Positions 5,639 to 41,526 of a stretch of 41,526 nt of DNA are shown piece after piece. This DNA is from an uncultured Candidatus Saccharibacteria bacterium (GTDB lineage: Bacteria > Patescibacteriota > Saccharimonadia > Saccharimonadales > Saccharimonadaceae): positions 1 to 41,526 of the forward strand of contig CAZFGY010000002.1 in NCBI GenBank assembly GCA_964518465.1. Direction: 5' to 3'. Position numbers and translations under genes: made by a program. The notes beneath the pieces are model-generated. The model saw only the letters and a list, made by a program, of their open reading frames with translations, ran no database searches and was not told where the DNA came from. The number at the start of each line of letters is the position of its first letter. The stretch's first letter is position 1.

Positions 5639-6637
5639 CTAGCGTCCAAAATCTACTGCTAGCTCGACCAGACGATTAGAGTAACCCCATTCGTTGTCGT
5701 ACCAAGCGATTACTTTGACCATGTTGCCCCCGACGACGTCAAGCAGAGGCAAATCAATGATAGTCGAATGCGAATTGCCCCGTAGGTCGGTACTGACCAA
5801 AGCATCCTCGGTAACTTCCAAAATGCCTTCGTAATATGGCTCTTGGGAGGCGCGCTCAAAGACTTTGGACAGCTCCTCGATCGTGACATTGCGCTTCAGG
5901 ACGGCGGTAATATCCGCCAGTGAAACCACAAGGGTAGGGACGCGGACCGAAAGACCGTTGAACTTCCCAGCTAGGCTCGGGATGGTAAGGGCGGCAGCTT
6001 TCGAGGCGCCAGTAGTCGTAGGGACGATATTGACGGCAGCGGCGCGAGCTTCGCGCAGGTCCTTGGCAGCATCATCAACGAGTTTCTGCGAAGCGGTATA
6101 AGAGTGTACGGTGGTCATCATGGCTTTTTCGATACCGAAATTATCTTCGAGGATTTTCATAGCTGGAGCGATACAGTTCGTAGTACAAGAGGCGCAAGAG
6201 ATGATATCGTCATCAGCGGTGACGACTTCTTCATTAACGCCGAGGACAACGGTCTTGGCGCCAGGACCTTTCGCAGGGGCGGAAATTACGACCTTGCGTG
6301 CACCGGCCTTGATATGAGAGCGAGCATCCGCAGGGTTGCAAAAACGTCCAGTACATTCCATGACAGTATCAATTTTGAGCTTATCCCAAGGCAAACGTAG
6401 CGGCTCAGGCTCGGAGAGGAAAAGAATTTTATGACCGTCAACGATAATGTGTTTGTCGTCGTAATCAATTTCGTGGTCATAAACACCATAAGCTGAATCG
6501 TACTTAAGCAAGTGCGCAAAAGTAGCAGGATCACCTAGACTATTGACGGCAATGACTTCCGCATCGCGCCTTTCAAAAGCGATCTTGAACGCCGCGCGCC
6601 CAATCCGTCCGAAACCGTTGATTGCGAGTCTTACCAT
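5639..6637 (-). CDS. gap: Type I glyceraldehyde-3-phosphate dehydrogenase
   Basis: INGFGRIGR, active site ASCTTNC and WYDNEWGYS. Confidence 0.97.
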   Translation of the reverse strand: MVRLAINGFGRIGRAAFKIAFERRDAEVIAVNSLGDPATFAHLLKYDSAYGVYDHEIDYDDKHIIVDGHKILFLSEPEPLRLPWDKLKIDTVMECTGRFCNPADARSHIKAGARKVVISAPAKGPGAKTVVLGVNEEVVTADDDIISCASCTTNCIAPAMKILEDNFGIEKAMMTTVHSYTASQKLVDDAAKDLREARAAAVNIVPTTTGASKAAALTIPSLAGKFNGLSVRVPTLVVSLADITAVLKRNVTIEELSKVFERASQEPYYEGILEVTEDALVSTDLRGNSHSTIIDLPLLDVVGGNMVKVIAWYDNEWGYSNRLVELAVDFGR

Positions 6638-6664: not shown

Positions 6665-6693
6665 ATTATAATCCTAATGTTTCTGACCGTCAA
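6665..6693 (-). promoter_or_regulatory. gap operon promoter
   Basis: TTGACG (6693-6688), 17 nt, TATAAT (6670-6665); AGGAGG RBS before the gap ATG. Confidence 0.7.
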
Positions 6694-6747
6694 TGTAATA
6701 TCTTGAGTGAAAACCATCCATGAGATCTATATTAAGTTTAGGAAAAT

Positions 6748-6951
6748 GGCTTCGTCCGCAGCGGGTACGCAGGTATTAACCAACACATGCTTACTTTAAT
6801 AGGAAATTTTCTCCGTCTTATAACTGGTCGTAGTATGTCTATAGATAAAAATTATACATTTCGCGTTGATGGTGAGGGTCGCGTCTACAGTGTCGTAGCA
6901 CCAGATTACCGTTTCTATGCCTTTCCCCTCCGTTGCCTAGTCTCTACTTAG
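6748..6951 (+). other. Cassette A1: C-terminal CLec/Fib_succ_major-like module with no start codon ahead of its first motif
   Basis: Translates GFVRSGYAGINQHMLTLIGNFLRLITGRSMSIDKNYTFRVDGEGRVYSVVAPDYRFYAFPLRCLVST*. An in-frame TAG lies at 6739-6741. The YNWS motif is present but in another frame (TATAACTGGTCG). Confidence 0.75.
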
Positions 6952-6979
6952 GCTATAGGTATGAAAGAAAACAGCTTAA

Positions 6980-7186
6980 CCCTTCCTCCGCGCCGGGCTC
7001 GTTGACCCTTGGGGTAGTACCCGAAAGATTCGACGCATTAGTGGTAATGCCTTCTTCTGGTCTTCTATTACGGCTTTAGAGGCTAATTATGCTCAGTATT
7101 TCCTCTTTACTCCTCAAGAGATCTATCCATCCCGTTCCCTTCATTATCTCAATGGCTTCCCCCTCCGTTGCCTCTTGCTAGGCTGA
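6980..7186 (+). other. Cassette A2: start-less CLec/Fib_succ_major-like module
   Basis: Translates PFLRAGLVDPWGSTRKIRRISGNAFFWSSITALEANYAQYFLFTPQEIYPSRSLHYLNGFPLRCLLLG*, directly preceded by an in-frame TAA (6977-6979). Confidence 0.85.
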
Positions 7187-7199
7187 TCTATGGAAAAGA

Positions 7200-7400
7200 G
7201 CGCGCGCCGGATTACCGGCTCCATCTTATAATCTGCAAGCTATGCGAAGGGTAAATAAGGAGGGTGACTTTTGGTCAAAGAATAGTGCGTCTACAATTCG
7301 TACTTATGTTGTAGCTTTAAACGAAACGACAGTTTTTCCTCTTAACTCTGGTAACCGTTTCTTCGGTTTCTCCCTCCGTTGCCTTATGCTACTAGGATAG
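7200..7400 (+). other. Cassette A3: CLec/Fib_succ_major-like module with no start codon ahead of its first motif
   Basis: Translates ARAGLPAPSYNLQAMRRVNKEGDFWSKNSASTIRTYVVALNETTVFPLNSGNRFFGFSLRCLMLLG*; in-frame TAG at 7179-7181. Confidence 0.85.
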
Positions 7401-7493
7401 GAAGGATGATGATCTGCTATGGACTATGGACTCTATACATGATATAATAGGTAAGTTCGTTATTGTATGGATAGTACTGTGAGGAGGGCTAGC

Positions 7494-7778
7494 ATGAATT
7501 ATCCAGATCACGATTTTTTGACTCCTGAGGAGGAGCGCACGCTCTTCGACTATTTCGCTTTATTGCTAGATACTATGAAATTGTTTGACGGTTCGGATTT
7601 AGACATTTGGATGACGGCGGAAGATGAGAAAGGGTTTGTGCTGACGCACGGAGCTACAGAAACCAGCGTGCTGGTGCCGATTGGCAAGGCCAAGGAAGCC
7701 TATGACTGGTTGGTTGACGCCAAGAAAATCGTTCAAGATGGACGCACATTATTATTAGAGCTACAGCGAGCATTGTAG
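7494..7778 (+). CDS. Hypothetical acidic protein (~94 aa) directly downstream of array A
   Basis: GAGGAGG RBS at 7481-7487 favours ATG 7494 over 7467; TGATATAAT at 7440-7448; a terminator follows. Confidence 0.7.
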   Translation: MNYPDHDFLTPEEERTLFDYFALLLDTMKLFDGSDLDIWMTAEDEKGFVLTHGATETSVLVPIGKAKEAYDWLVDAKKIVQDGRTLLLELQRAL

Positions 7779-24985: not shown

Positions 24986-25084
24986 CTTGGGCCTCCACTT
25001 CCTCATATGTGCACTTTGCCCAAGAGTGCTTAATTTTCCCTTTTCCCACTCGTGCTTTTCTTTAGTATAGCATAACAGGTATAA

Positions 25085-25113
25085 AAAAGTGTTGTAAAAA
25101 TTACAACACTTTT
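25085..25113. repeat. AT-rich palindrome, copy 1 (terminator or protein-binding site)
   Basis: AAAAGTGTTGTAA-aaa-TTACAACACTTTT; near-identical copy at 32441-32467. Confidence 0.75.
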
Positions 25114-27867: not shown

Positions 27868-28994
27868 TATTTGTCTCCTACTTTAACGGTACTAATTCCC
27901 TGCAGGCGCTTGATGATACCAGGCAAAACTTGCATGATTTGATCTATATCTTGTTTAGTAGTTTCAAGGCCGAGCGAAAAGCGAATACTGCTGTGCGCGA
28001 CTTCGGCGTCACCGCGCGTAGCCATGAGGACATGGCTAGGTCGGATGTCGCCAGCCGCGCAAGCAGAACCAGTGCCAGCGGCAATAGCTTCGGCGTCGAG
28101 GTAGAGTTGAATTGATTCACCCTCGGCAGCTTTAAAACTGGCATTTAAAAGATTCGGCAGACCCCCTTCCGTAGGACTGTTGATGCTACTATAAGGGATT
28201 TCTGATAAAATACGCTGAGCGAGTTGGTCTCGAAGTGGCTTGATTTTTTCGGCATATTGTTGCCAGCTTTGATTATCATGGCACCATTTTGCGGCTTCAC
28301 CAAAGCCGGCAATGGCAAATACATTGCTGGTACCGGCGCGACGGCGGTTTTCTTGATGACCGCCGTAGATGAGCGGCACAAAAGGAGCACCCTTCTTCAC
28401 ATAGAGTAGTCCAACACCAAGAGGCCCACCAATTTTGTGAGCGCTTGCCGTTAGGTAATCAACGCCTAATTCCTTAACATCGATTTTGATTTTTCCTAGA
28501 GCTTGAGTAGCGTCGGTATGCACAAAAATGTTGTAATTTTTACAACGTTCTACAATCTCCTGGATTGGTTCGAGAGTTCCAAGCTCATTATTTGCCATCA
28601 TAACAGAGATTAATTGTGCGCTTGTAGGGATCTGGTCCGAATGAACCCTGCCCCATACGTCTACAGGAAGAATACTGAGCTGATTAGTGCGGGCTTTCGC
28701 GGCTTCTAGTATGGATGGATGCTCGATACTACTGACGGCAATGGCTTGACCCGCAAAGCAATTGATGACAGTATTATTGCTTTCGCTACCACCAGATGTG
28801 AAAATAATTTCTTCAGGATCAGCATTGATTAATGTTGCGGCTGCTTCGCGAGCGGTTTCTAGGAGCTGCTTTGCACGTTGACCTGGGGAGTGCAAAGCCG
28901 AGGCATTACCTAGCTCTAAATCAATAATCTCTCTTAGCTTAGCTTTGACACACGTTAGCAGCGGAGAGGTGGCGGCATGGTCGAAATAAATCAT
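27867..28994 (-). CDS. iscS: Cysteine desulfurase IscS/NifS
   Basis: YFDHAATSP, FTSGGSESNN, SAHKIGGP and GSAC. Confidence 0.93.
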   Translation of the reverse strand: MIYFDHAATSPLLTCVKAKLREIIDLELGNASALHSPGQRAKQLLETAREAAATLINADPEEIIFTSGGSESNNTVINCFAGQAIAVSSIEHPSILEAAKARTNQLSILPVDVWGRVHSDQIPTSAQLISVMMANNELGTLEPIQEIVERCKNYNIFVHTDATQALGKIKIDVKELGVDYLTASAHKIGGPLGVGLLYVKKGAPFVPLIYGGHQENRRRAGTSNVFAIAGFGEAAKWCHDNQSWQQYAEKIKPLRDQLAQRILSEIPYSSINSPTEGGLPNLLNASFKAAEGESIQLYLDAEAIAAGTGSACAAGDIRPSHVLMATRGDAEVAHSSIRFSLGLETTKQDIDQIMQVLPGIIKRLQGISTVKVGDK

Positions 28995-32430: not shown

Positions 32431-32440
32431 GTCAATATAA

Positions 32441-32467
32441 AAAGTGTTGTAAAAACTACAACACTTT
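32441..32467. repeat. AT-rich palindrome, copy 2
   Basis: AAAGTGTTGTA-aaaac-TACAACACTTT, one mismatch to the 25085 copy over the shared span. Confidence 0.75.
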
Positions 32468-39170: not shown

Positions 39171-41240
39171 TTAGTTTAAAGTCGTGAGTTGCTGATATTT
39201 TTTAATACGAGCGGCCAGTTCGGGGTAGTCGGCCATAGCCTCGGGATGTTTGGCAAACTCGGCAGCATGATGGCTAGCTTGAGCAATTAAATCTGTATCG
39301 GTCAAATTAGCAACTTGAAGATTGAGTTCGCCATGCTGCATGGCCCCGTAAATTTCTCCCGGTCCGCGCAGTTTCAGATCGACCTCGGCCAGATGAAAGC
39401 CGTCAGTAGACTTTTCCATTTCCCGTAGACGCTTGGAAGGTTTGCCTTCACCAGTGGTCAAGAGGTAACAATAAGCAGGCTGATCACCGCGCCCAACACG
39501 ACCGCGGAGCTGGTGAAGCTGCGCCAGACCATAATTCTCGGCATCTTGAATAATGATCATGTTGGCGTTGGGAACGTTCATACCCACTTCGACAACAGTG
39601 GTAGAAACCAGTAACTGAATACGATTACGGGCAAAATCGTTCATGACTTGGTCTTTTTTCTCGGGTTTCATCTTGCCGTGCAATAAACCAACCTCGAAAT
39701 TAGAAAACAGCTCAGTGAGTTTTTTGGCTTGTTTTTTCACAGAAGTGGCAATATTGGAGTTTTTTTCTTCGATTACTTGACAAATCCAATAAATCTGCTG
39801 TCCTTTAGCTAGAATTTCTCGCATTTTAGGATATAGTTCATCATGTTGTTCGGTTTCGTTCAATATCTTAGTCGTAATGGGCTGGCGTCCGGGGGGTAGC
39901 TCATTAAGCAGCGAAACGTCGAGATCGCCAAAAATCGTCAGCTGCAAAGAGCGCGGAATAGGAGTAGCGGTCATAGAAAGGAGGTGCGGAGCGGTGTTTT
40001 CGGGAGATTTCAGGAGGAGTTTTTGACGCTGACCGACGCCAAACCGGTGCTGTTCGTCGATAATGCAGAAGGCTAGGGACTGAAAATGCGTGTCATCGGT
40101 GAGCAAAGCATGAGTACCAATCACCAAATCGATCTCGCCGGACTTAATCAGGCGTTTCAGCATACGTTTATTAGGAGTGGAACCGATCAGTAGGGCTACG
40201 CGTGGCATCGTCAGGCCAATATCGGCCTCCTCGAGCGTCTGGAAGAGCTTTACAAGGCTTTCGAAATGTTGGGTGGCTAGGATGGCGGTCGGTGCGAGCA
40301 GGGCGGTCTGGTGGCCTGCTAGAGTGGTCTGAGTGGCAGCTATGGCGGCCACAATGGTCTTACCGGAGCCGACATCTCCCTGTAAAAGCCGGTTCATAGG
40401 GATGCGGCGCTCTAGAGATTGGAGAATTTCCCAGGTCGAGCGACGCTGGGCGTTGGTAAGCTGGAAAGGCAGGCTTTGGACCAGTTTTTTGGTAAAATCC
40501 GCATCAAATTTGAGAGAAATAGCCTTGAGGCGACGATTTTCTTGCTTGTTCAGCTTAGCAGCGAGAATTAACTCAAAAAGTTCCTCATAGGCGAGGTATT
40601 TTCTTCCCTGTTCGGCTTCTTCCGGTGATTCAGGAAAATGAGCCGCAAAGAGGGCTTCGGCGCGTGCTCCCGGCTTGACAAAGTCAGGATCGCCTTCTGT
40701 AAATGGCAGTAAATCAGGTATTTTGGCAAATTCAGGACGCAGGCCAGAGATAATTTTATGGAAAACTTGAGGTTTAATAGCACTTTTGGCGGAATAAATC
40801 GGCTGAAAACTAGCTGCAGCGCCATCTTTTTCGACGTCCTGGACTAATGCCGCAGTCGGCGAAGTCAGGACGTATCGACCGCCTTTAAGCTCATATTTGC
40901 CAGTAAAATAGTACTCGCGCTCGGGGTCAAACTGTTTCGCTCGATAAGGTTGGTTGAACCAAACAGTACGAATCGCACCTGTATCATCCCGAATCACGCC
41001 CTCGGTCAAGGTCAACTTGCGGCGGCTAGTGCGAATAACGTGGAGACCATCAATTTTGCCCCGCACAATCACCTTGCCAGGCCGCAGATCTTCAATATTG
41101 ACCGTGGTTTGATAATTTTCGTAAACGCGTGGCAGGCAGTAAATAAGGTCGCCGACCGTATTGAGATTGGCGCGCGCAAAAGCCTCGGCGGTCTTGGGGC
41201 CGACGCCTTTAATCGTATCAATGGGGGCAGACATGTCCAT
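39171..41240 (-). CDS. recG: ATP-dependent DNA helicase RecG
   Basis: QGDVGSGKT, DEQHRFG, MTATPIPR, QLHQLRGRVGRG and DLKLRGPGE; start ATG 41240 is 7 nt after TATAAT. Confidence 0.97.
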   Translation of the reverse strand: MDMSAPIDTIKGVGPKTAEAFARANLNTVGDLIYCLPRVYENYQTTVNIEDLRPGKVIVRGKIDGLHVIRTSRRKLTLTEGVIRDDTGAIRTVWFNQPYRAKQFDPEREYYFTGKYELKGGRYVLTSPTAALVQDVEKDGAAASFQPIYSAKSAIKPQVFHKIISGLRPEFAKIPDLLPFTEGDPDFVKPGARAEALFAAHFPESPEEAEQGRKYLAYEELFELILAAKLNKQENRRLKAISLKFDADFTKKLVQSLPFQLTNAQRRSTWEILQSLERRIPMNRLLQGDVGSGKTIVAAIAATQTTLAGHQTALLAPTAILATQHFESLVKLFQTLEEADIGLTMPRVALLIGSTPNKRMLKRLIKSGEIDLVIGTHALLTDDTHFQSLAFCIIDEQHRFGVGQRQKLLLKSPENTAPHLLSMTATPIPRSLQLTIFGDLDVSLLNELPPGRQPITTKILNETEQHDELYPKMREILAKGQQIYWICQVIEEKNSNIATSVKKQAKKLTELFSNFEVGLLHGKMKPEKKDQVMNDFARNRIQLLVSTTVVEVGMNVPNANMIIIQDAENYGLAQLHQLRGRVGRGDQPAYCYLLTTGEGKPSKRLREMEKSTDGFHLAEVDLKLRGPGEIYGAMQHGELNLQVANLTDTDLIAQASHHAAEFAKHPEAMADYPELAARIKKYQQLTTLN

Positions 41241-41296
41241 AAGAGGTATTATAGCATGAGTCTGGAAAAACACTTAGAGATGCGAGGATTGCAAAA

Positions 41297-41497
41297 ATCC
41301 TCCGCGCCGGGTACGTCCATCCTTGGGCTGGCTACCAGCAGGTTCGGGCTGTCGGTGCCGCTGCCTACTTTTGGTCGTCTGTTGTTAATTCCCCTATCGA
41401 CGCTCAGGACCTCCACTTTAATCCTTACAATGTCTACCCTTCCAGCATCAATGCTCGCTTATACGGCTTTCCCCTCCGTTGCCTCTTGCTAGGCTGA
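41297..41497 (+). other. Cassette B1: start-less CLec/Fib_succ_major-like module, first unit of a second array
   Basis: Translates ILRAGYVHPWAGYQQVRAVGAAAYFWSSVVNSPIDAQDLHFNPYNVYPSSINARLYGFPLRCLLLG*. There is no ATG or GTG between the in-frame TAG at 41252-41254 and the cassette. 41465-41510 matches 7154-7199 at 45/46 nt. Confidence 0.88.
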
Positions 41498-41526
41498 TCT
41501 ATGGAAAAGAAGGGTGCGATGTGGCT
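41498..41526 (+). repeat. Inter-cassette linker and probable start of the next cassette (truncated by the window end)
   Basis: TCTATGGAAAAGA linker identical to the A2/A3 linker, then GTG CGA TGT GGC (VRCG, compare VRSG/LRAG). Confidence 0.6.

Follow-up and report, generated by a model that had tools for sequence, protein, structure and literature searches.

A dispersed library of variable-region cassettes, probably copied from the target gene of a DGR, in a Saccharibacterium

The genome from which this DNA comes (G000; its contigs are numbered with C, congener genomes with other G-numbers, and sequencing runs, represented by contigs only, with X) holds a dispersed library of cassettes that correspond to the variable 3' end of a few FISUMP genes, one of which is the target of a DGR. 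We put at roughly 70% the probability that silent intergenic slots receive copies of tips made by the DGR and that recombination between short conserved ends later brings these back. As the first step of such a pathway, sequence differences indicate that the C29 gene has adenines of its variable region mutated by the DGR, whose reverse transcriptase (RT) is encoded on contig C29 and whose template lies on C73. Snapshots of this region would then enter intergenic slots, in many cases where a cassette already in place ends, and with both orientations occurring, a step for which the argument is strong. Cores are also duplicated between slots and sometimes swap class ends: 28 core pairs with at least 90% identity occupy different loci, and two pairs cross classes. 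Finally, the full-length gene may be reloaded with cores, for which gene conversion of the RecA type is the probable route; motifs that we take to be recA-, ruvB-, recG- and dprA-like are present in G000. To judge from sequence, the cassettes are presumably silent and the full-length genes expressed.

The window, by which we mean the whole analyzed stretch of 41,526 nucleotides, contains four cassettes (Table 1). As stated in the original prediction, three open frames with conserved ends stand head to tail, each with an in-frame stop just 5' and, as read from the sequence, with no ATG, GTG, or TTG ahead of its first motif. Stops had been placed within three to four codons of LRCL, which does not hold for unit 3, where the stop is the fifth codon. 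The description as a tandem three-unit array overlooked the fourth unit, and across the 53 loci, of which this array is one, orientations are often mixed and not purely tandem. Four copies of the 12-mer CCCTCCGTTGCC are present in the window, where 0.01 would be expected, and none of 100 shuffles reached four; the fourth copy belongs to the further unit at 41297-41497. Between units 1–3 the cores are highly divergent, with 55–70 matching bases of ~155.

Table 1. Features of the window (plain coordinates) and of the two DGR-bearing contigs.
Feature	Position	Strand	Description
GAPDH-like gene, left flank	5639..6637	-	presumed from its INGFGRIGR motif
Sigma-70-like promoter match (11/12)	6665..6693	-	points away from array
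Cassette 1	6751..6964	+	class V; FVRSG...AFPLRCLVST then stop; frame 6751-6951, stop 6949-6951; conserved tail to ~6964
Cassette 2	6983..7199	+	class L; FLRAG...GFPLRCLLLG then stop; frame 6983-7186, stop 7184-7186
Cassette 3	7200..7409	+	class M; ARAG...GFSLRCLMLLG then stop; frame 7200-7400, stop 7398-7400
Sigma-70-like promoter match (10/12)	7420..7448	+	downstream of array
94-aa ORF, right flank	7494..7778	+	no Pfam or NCBIfam match
RecG-like gene adjoining cassette 4	39171..41273	-	presumed from its helicase motif; treated as flank only
Cassette 4	41297..41510	+	class L; unit 41297-41497
DGR reverse transcriptase	C29:6206-4956		417-aa frame; motifs GIVIGNLTSQ and YVDD; Pfam RVT_1 at E 8.8e-7, slightly below the cut-off
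Template	C73:338-530		Asn-rich, AAC-rich; reverse end of C73 bears L tail

Cassette 1 belongs to the class of the full-length gene on C51, and its core is identical to that of cassette C22:-95. Cassette 2 differs from the DGR template at 25 of 42 adenine and 44 of 151 non-adenine sites and is, to judge from this pattern, an old relative of it; it is 96.8% identical to C1:+33895, whose tail is M-like. The core of cassette 3 is identical to C24:+10559. In cassette 4, 17 of 42 adenine and 4 of 151 non-adenine sites differ from the template, which marks it out as a young DGR product. The two sigma-70-like sites in the window are weak evidence, given 1.9 expected by chance, and no + strand match of this kind was found upstream of the array in the window scan, so that no promoter-like site reads into it.

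The G000 assembly (784,081 bases in 89 contigs, 82% complete) contains 186 cassette tails at the 53 loci, which lie on 41 of the contigs. Classes V and L account for 75 tails each and class M for 36; 108 tails are on the + and 78 on the - strand, and a few of the 186 are probably the ends of full-length genes. Each locus comprises one to eight units located between genes, mostly beside housekeeping genes or on the 5' side of paralogs, and three loci touch a predicted ORF of at least 130 aa. On C3, C41, C44, C59, and C84, arrays or tails lie just 5' of FISUMP paralogs.

At least a dozen FISUMP paralogs or fragments are found in G000. The complete paralog on C41 scores 51.1 bits on TIGR02145, against a cut-off of 41.65, with matched residues that include the cassette-like segment, whereas the truncated C29 and C51 proteins score 30.7 and 22 bits, under the cut-off. 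The full-length paralog thus belongs to FISUMP/Fib_succ_major (TIGR02145, PF09603), of which the cassettes represent only the last 60–65 residues. A structural model of the C41 paralog (297 residues, pLDDT 94) places the cassette-type segment in the last fifth or so of the protein. Comparison of this model, which is that of the paralog and not of the target, gave middling Z values: 7.2 for TvpA (rmsd 4.0, 159 aligned; joint top), PvdO, and CarF, 6.9 for InvE, and 5.7 for TaqVP and Mtd. Foldseek with the same model gave no match at E<=0.001, the cassettes alone gave none in Pfam at E<=0.1, and a cassette profile against PDB sequences returned a single row with E 0.54. The Fib_succ_major/CLec origin that had been predicted agrees with a FISUMP parent domain of predicted CLec-like fold, on evidence from the full-length paralogs and not from the cassettes alone. 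With an N-terminus that resembles a signal peptide by eye and this predicted fold, the full-length protein is probably secreted and may bind host bacteria or other surfaces. Further full-length paralogs (C33:6631-7707 on the - strand, C23:3-419, and C64:1-399) have fixed ends resembling cassette classes, and the C33 paralog ends in an apparent V tail read through its stop.

A DGR RT, an AAC-rich template, and full-length genes with matching flanks had all been predicted, and all are present: the RT is on C29, the template on C73, and the genes on C29 (class L) and C51 (class V). The C29/C73 system is a member of the DGR family. The full-length target on C29 is oriented divergently to the RT gene and runs off the contig inside its L-type segment; we infer that C29 and C73 are contiguous. 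In the assembled part of the C29 variable region, within which the contig ends, 8 of 26 adenine sites and 1 of 88 other sites differ from the template. An ORF of 300 aa, considered as a possible accessory gene (Avd or equivalent), overlaps the RT start and has no significant Pfam or NCBIfam match; an Atlas lead points to a cluster with 13% bAvd members, with a score of 0.78 that is within the chance range. The G000 RT was located by its motifs. The RTs of both G000 and G010 escaped a genome search with Pfam RVT_1, so that such a search cannot demonstrate absence. Relatives of the RT are found in records named Saccharibacteria, and in one Ca. Nanosyncoccus, and relatives sit beside template/variable-region pairs; 19 of 24 congeners have RT matches. 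No V- or M-type template was found among the unpaired heads or Asn-rich windows of the 82% complete genome, and the same assembly contains no full-length M-class gene.

The differences between L cassettes and the template carry the adenine signature of the DGR. In the eight of 66 L cassettes nearest the template, which were selected for few non-adenine differences, 159 of 336 adenine and 48 of 1104 non-adenine sites differ. The remaining 58 have more than 13 non-adenine differences from the template. Old L cassettes reach 35–40% non-adenine difference yet keep the adenine excess, and in the 43 oldest of the same length 55% of the adenine sites differ versus 34–40% of the others. There is no support for another round of mutagenesis acting on the other strand: in young cassettes, T differences amount to 6.4% against 2.7–3.5% for G and C, and they cluster near the tail.

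The ends of the cassettes point to the gene from which they were copied. Tails of L cassettes match the 3' flank of the target gene and not that of the template, which argues that what was copied is the variable region of the target, as opposed to raw cDNA of the template. The match to the full-length gene extends from usually 5–9 nt (up to 25) before the R codon to ~25–32 nt past the LRC motif, and 5' extensions of 5–25 nt match target coding sequence. C74:-71, a truncated copy inside an array, bears ~85 nt of C29 coding sequence. Three young cassettes, including cassette 4, have 6 of 8 derived alleles in common with the C29 variable region (permutation p<=0.0006, in a test that models neither site-specific mutation nor selection bias), and one has none. 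Altogether, the ends and alleles argue strongly for a copying of the DNA of the full-length gene into the slots. Reverse transcription of target mRNA can be ruled out as the source, since the tail adenines are unmutated (0 of 525 changed in class L; the counts are 17 of 444 in V and 13 of 315 in M).

For the return path, from slot to gene, the evidence comes from the V class. At its end, the C51 gene has 49 nt identical to cassette C80:+1536, and upstream of the R codon the two have only 6 nt in common. A 3171-nt contig of run X1 is identical to the C51 gene as far as the head, beyond which 190 different bases lead into a V tail. The mixed consensus of two contigs at this loose end resolves into cassettes C71:+2308 and C35:+6682, of which only C71:+2308 fits the deduced start, length, and four end mismatches of the X1 core. 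The end of the C51 gene carries the C80 core in this assembly and, by our deduction, the C71 core in X1. The two cores are unrelated by eye and different in length, so one template could not yield both. The C71 slot has 36 nt in common with the full-length gene. This presumably exceeds the word length of X1-type contigs (31), so the X1 join could be an assembly choice. In X5, a run from another study, the start of core C15:+17038 follows an L tail and a 33-nt V-gene extension, in a slot unlike that of G000. Identity between a full-length gene and a cassette gives by itself no direction of transfer, and the C29 variable region, almost without non-adenine change, gives no sign of old cassettes reloaded into the L gene. 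A swappable library and accumulated DGR products had been offered as alternatives; they look like two stages of one system, in which switching into the full-length gene is suggested by assembly differences between contigs.

Copy-out from the full-length gene is thus better supported than reloading, as would be expected if the cassettes were one-way junk, by-products of DGR activity or of DNA uptake that accumulate unused. Such a reading, with which the 4 of 175 two-ended cassettes that are frameshifted and the few that are truncated would also agree, is very improbable in view of the state of the frames. The other 171 two-ended cassettes are in frame without stops, compared with ~7% for shuffled cores, and dN/dS is 0.31 for eight V/M pairs, 0.16 for three pairs in G010, and 0.64 for eight L pairs, in which it is mixed with DGR changes. 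The pairs were picked by nucleotide identity, as picking by amino-acid identity gives bias. The neutral decay that would have spoken against the original prediction is not seen, with dN/dS of 0.16–0.31 outside class L. Moreover, 3 of 95 G010 cores have clear G000 homologs (41–46% aa identity, E<=6e-13) although the ends are species-specific, and in these pS is 0.64–0.84 versus a pN of 0.38–0.42; hugely diverged cores common to both species have thus remained in frame. The 168 cassettes with a recognized head sum to ~37 kb, near 5% of the assembly, and have been retained, and within each species the ends are uniform although the cores are old, both of which argue against unused debris. Reloading would expose the cores to selection and so explain their intact frames.

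Intact frames and a dN/dS below 1 would also suit cassettes that are mutated and selected in place, either as remote DGR targets or as separately translated mini-proteins, and the available part of PMC5758913 includes remote targets, one of them short and single-domain. This reading is distinctly improbable. An in-frame ATG precedes the head in only 45 of 165 cassettes (81 counting GTG and TTG), which by our estimate is about chance expectation and makes selection as separate genes unlikely. In the model, the segment makes up no more than about the last fifth of the protein, and the window scan found no promoter-like site that reads into its array. For remote targets, retrohoming would reset non-adenine sites, whereas only eight of the 66 L cassettes are near the template, and the 82% complete genome yielded no template for V or M. 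To all appearance, the cassettes are not DGR targets, most being startless and 58 L cassettes so far from the template. Periodic use in the full-length gene probably accounts better for the selection on them.

The layout of the arrays raises the alternative of a shufflon- or integron-like site-specific system, in which a recombinase would invert, excise, or insert cassettes at their conserved heads. The R64 pilV shufflon reportedly has swappable C-terminal segments in mixed orientations, with a dedicated invertase and the array behind a constant gene. The likeness lies in the mixed orientations (56 of 133 neighboring cassette pairs are on opposite strands, and the arrays of G079 alternate) and in the short inverted repeats at head-to-head joints, where the R codons are only 11–14 nt apart in 18 of the 33 joints listed; others have a palindromic spacer. 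We nevertheless regard such a system as improbable here. Unlike the R64 arrangement, the library occupies dozens of unlinked loci, and its cores are duplicated and not merely moved. At none of the 53 loci was an array seen fused behind a constant 5' part, although the DNA downstream of the V gene lies outside the assembly and an adjacent array is possible there. Instead of a dedicated invertase, the one tyrosine recombinase found in G000 is Xer-like, its best matches being XerD/XerC models at scores below their cut-offs. The cassette end points, furthermore, vary by several bases at both ends. Such ragged ends argue against a single fixed cut, and the near-identical spacing in the 18 joints suggests that the heads seem to be preferred joining points.

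Palindromic spacers between opposed heads occur singly (~39-nt joints) or doubled (~94-nt joints), for example on C1, C3, C6, C14, C20, C23, and C25. Of 27 matches to their half-sites, 24 are at most 450 nt from a cassette, and the spacer could be a binding or cutting site. The tyrosine recombinase gene (L001, C50) is located 200 nt from a cassette array, beside genes that are presumably pilus-assembly-like.

The assembly is fragmented, and many contigs break at cassettes, as an artefact produced by a hypervariable gene in a mixed population would predict. Such an origin is barely credible, since many other arrays sit inside long contigs and nine other genomes hold libraries with ends of their own. 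In addition, the junctions between flank and cassette at the window array recur without differences in X1 and X3, whose contigs cover the array as overlapping pieces, none of which spans it; X1–X4 may be source samples of this DNA. The depth of the cassette 1 core is ~3x that of the flank in X1 and 2x in X3, and that of the cassette 3 core ~2x. Cores without coverage in X5 and X7, at depth 4–5, were not counted as absent.

Cassette libraries are widespread in one genus. Among 200 congeners sampled, 183 have a profile match and 29 have at least 60 first-look candidates, which are unscored and include full-length paralogs. Cassettes were read in the fetched parts of nine congeners (G010, G014, G016, G024, G053, G070, G079, G093, and G185), whose libraries have end sequences of their own; tail counts are 140 in G010, 86 in G014, and 63 in G016. 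Upstream of the GAPDH-like gene, the slot is occupied by cassettes in G000, G010, and G079; none were seen there in G014, G016, G023, and G024. A search for an empty insertion site gave no match across the cassette among 60 relatives of G014. In G079 (97% complete, 137 matches) the G000 RT protein query found no match, which by itself does not prove absence. In its library (L127-L140) the 5' heads are long and conserved, the 3' tail shows almost no conservation, and orientations alternate, so that the library looks like a different design.

G014 has a V-type template, from which the region beside its DGR differs at 20 of 52 adenine and 0 of 133 other sites, and its cassettes grade from 3 to 54 non-adenine differences. 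This suggests that the V cassettes of G000 may descend from such a template. Classes V and M are likely archives of templates since lost, so that the library would persist after its own DGR had disappeared. We give even odds to the broader proposal that the cassettes constitute a heritable memory of DGR-diversified tips, with dedicated copy-out, maintenance across speciation, and reloading, which survives the replacement or loss of template and RT. The template of G010 is of the L type, while its counted tails are V-type, and G010 has a second template-like copy away from the RT, between V cassettes (L078:5450-5767, G010:C1 ~73550). Two further RTs of ~560 aa are found on C39 and C40 of G014, and in G124 (C4:17098-18224) a DGR RT matches as two pieces with an internal TGA.

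DGRs, of which that of Bordetella phage BPP-1 is an example, are thought to overwrite their target, so that earlier variants are forgotten. Silent-cassette systems remember variants, and the filling of their libraries is largely an open question. Saccharibacteria, for their part, are host-dependent epibionts. In G000, a single protein module has both a DGR and a cassette library. Its cassettes include young and old ones, its template is known and serves as a reference, and related species are many, so that the filling, aging, and reuse of a library become measurable. The system also suggests that, in these small-genome gut bacteria, strong pressure to vary acts on a protein family that is a candidate for host-cell recognition.

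The present system resembles DGRs in its RT, AAC-rich template, adenine-specific differences, and C-terminal variable region in a CLec-like domain. The DGR of Treponema denticola TvpA has remote targets, according to parts of PMC5758913 and PMC4891356; leftover target genes without an RT are described in a part of the latter. The maxima given in the consulted sections of PMC5758913 are eight tandem and seven non-adjacent targets, described as genes. Trans-acting targets and recombination of CLec ends are discussed in passages of PMC10907252 and PMC8144416, and the survey in PMC8144416 would, by its own statement in one such passage, miss remote targets. Unlike the DGRs described, the one studied here is accompanied by ~180 startless copies of the variable region only, two of the three classes have no template found, and many copies are too diverged for current targets.

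The cassette set may work like an msp2/pilS library. In the consulted part of PMC4534519, Anaplasma phagocytophilum msp2/p44 has ~100 functional pseudogenes, Neisseria pilS/pilE up to 19 copies at six loci, with short homologies sufficing for pilE, and Borrelia vls/vlsE 15 cassettes. The common traits are promoterless or startless variable cores, conserved ends, dispersed clusters, and a matching full-length gene (here for classes L and V). In contrast to those systems, described there as one-way donors in immune-evading pathogens, the library of G000 seems to receive its content from the full-length gene, with a mutagenic RT as its seed; it also comprises three interleaved libraries, and its bearer belongs to the Saccharibacteria. 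The elements that seem new are the role of a DGR in seeding the library and the apparent transfer of copies to it from the full-length gene: variable-region-only libraries tied to a DGR are not described in the literature searched, which included few subscription papers, and such loci might be listed in the supplements of PMC5758913 and PMC8144416.

The window also contains near-perfect palindromes, ~29 nt long, that form a second family and have no relation to the cassettes; they occur at 25084-25112, 28518-28551, and 32439-32467, as well as upstream of the GAPDH-like gene of G016 (L086), possibly as a regulator site.
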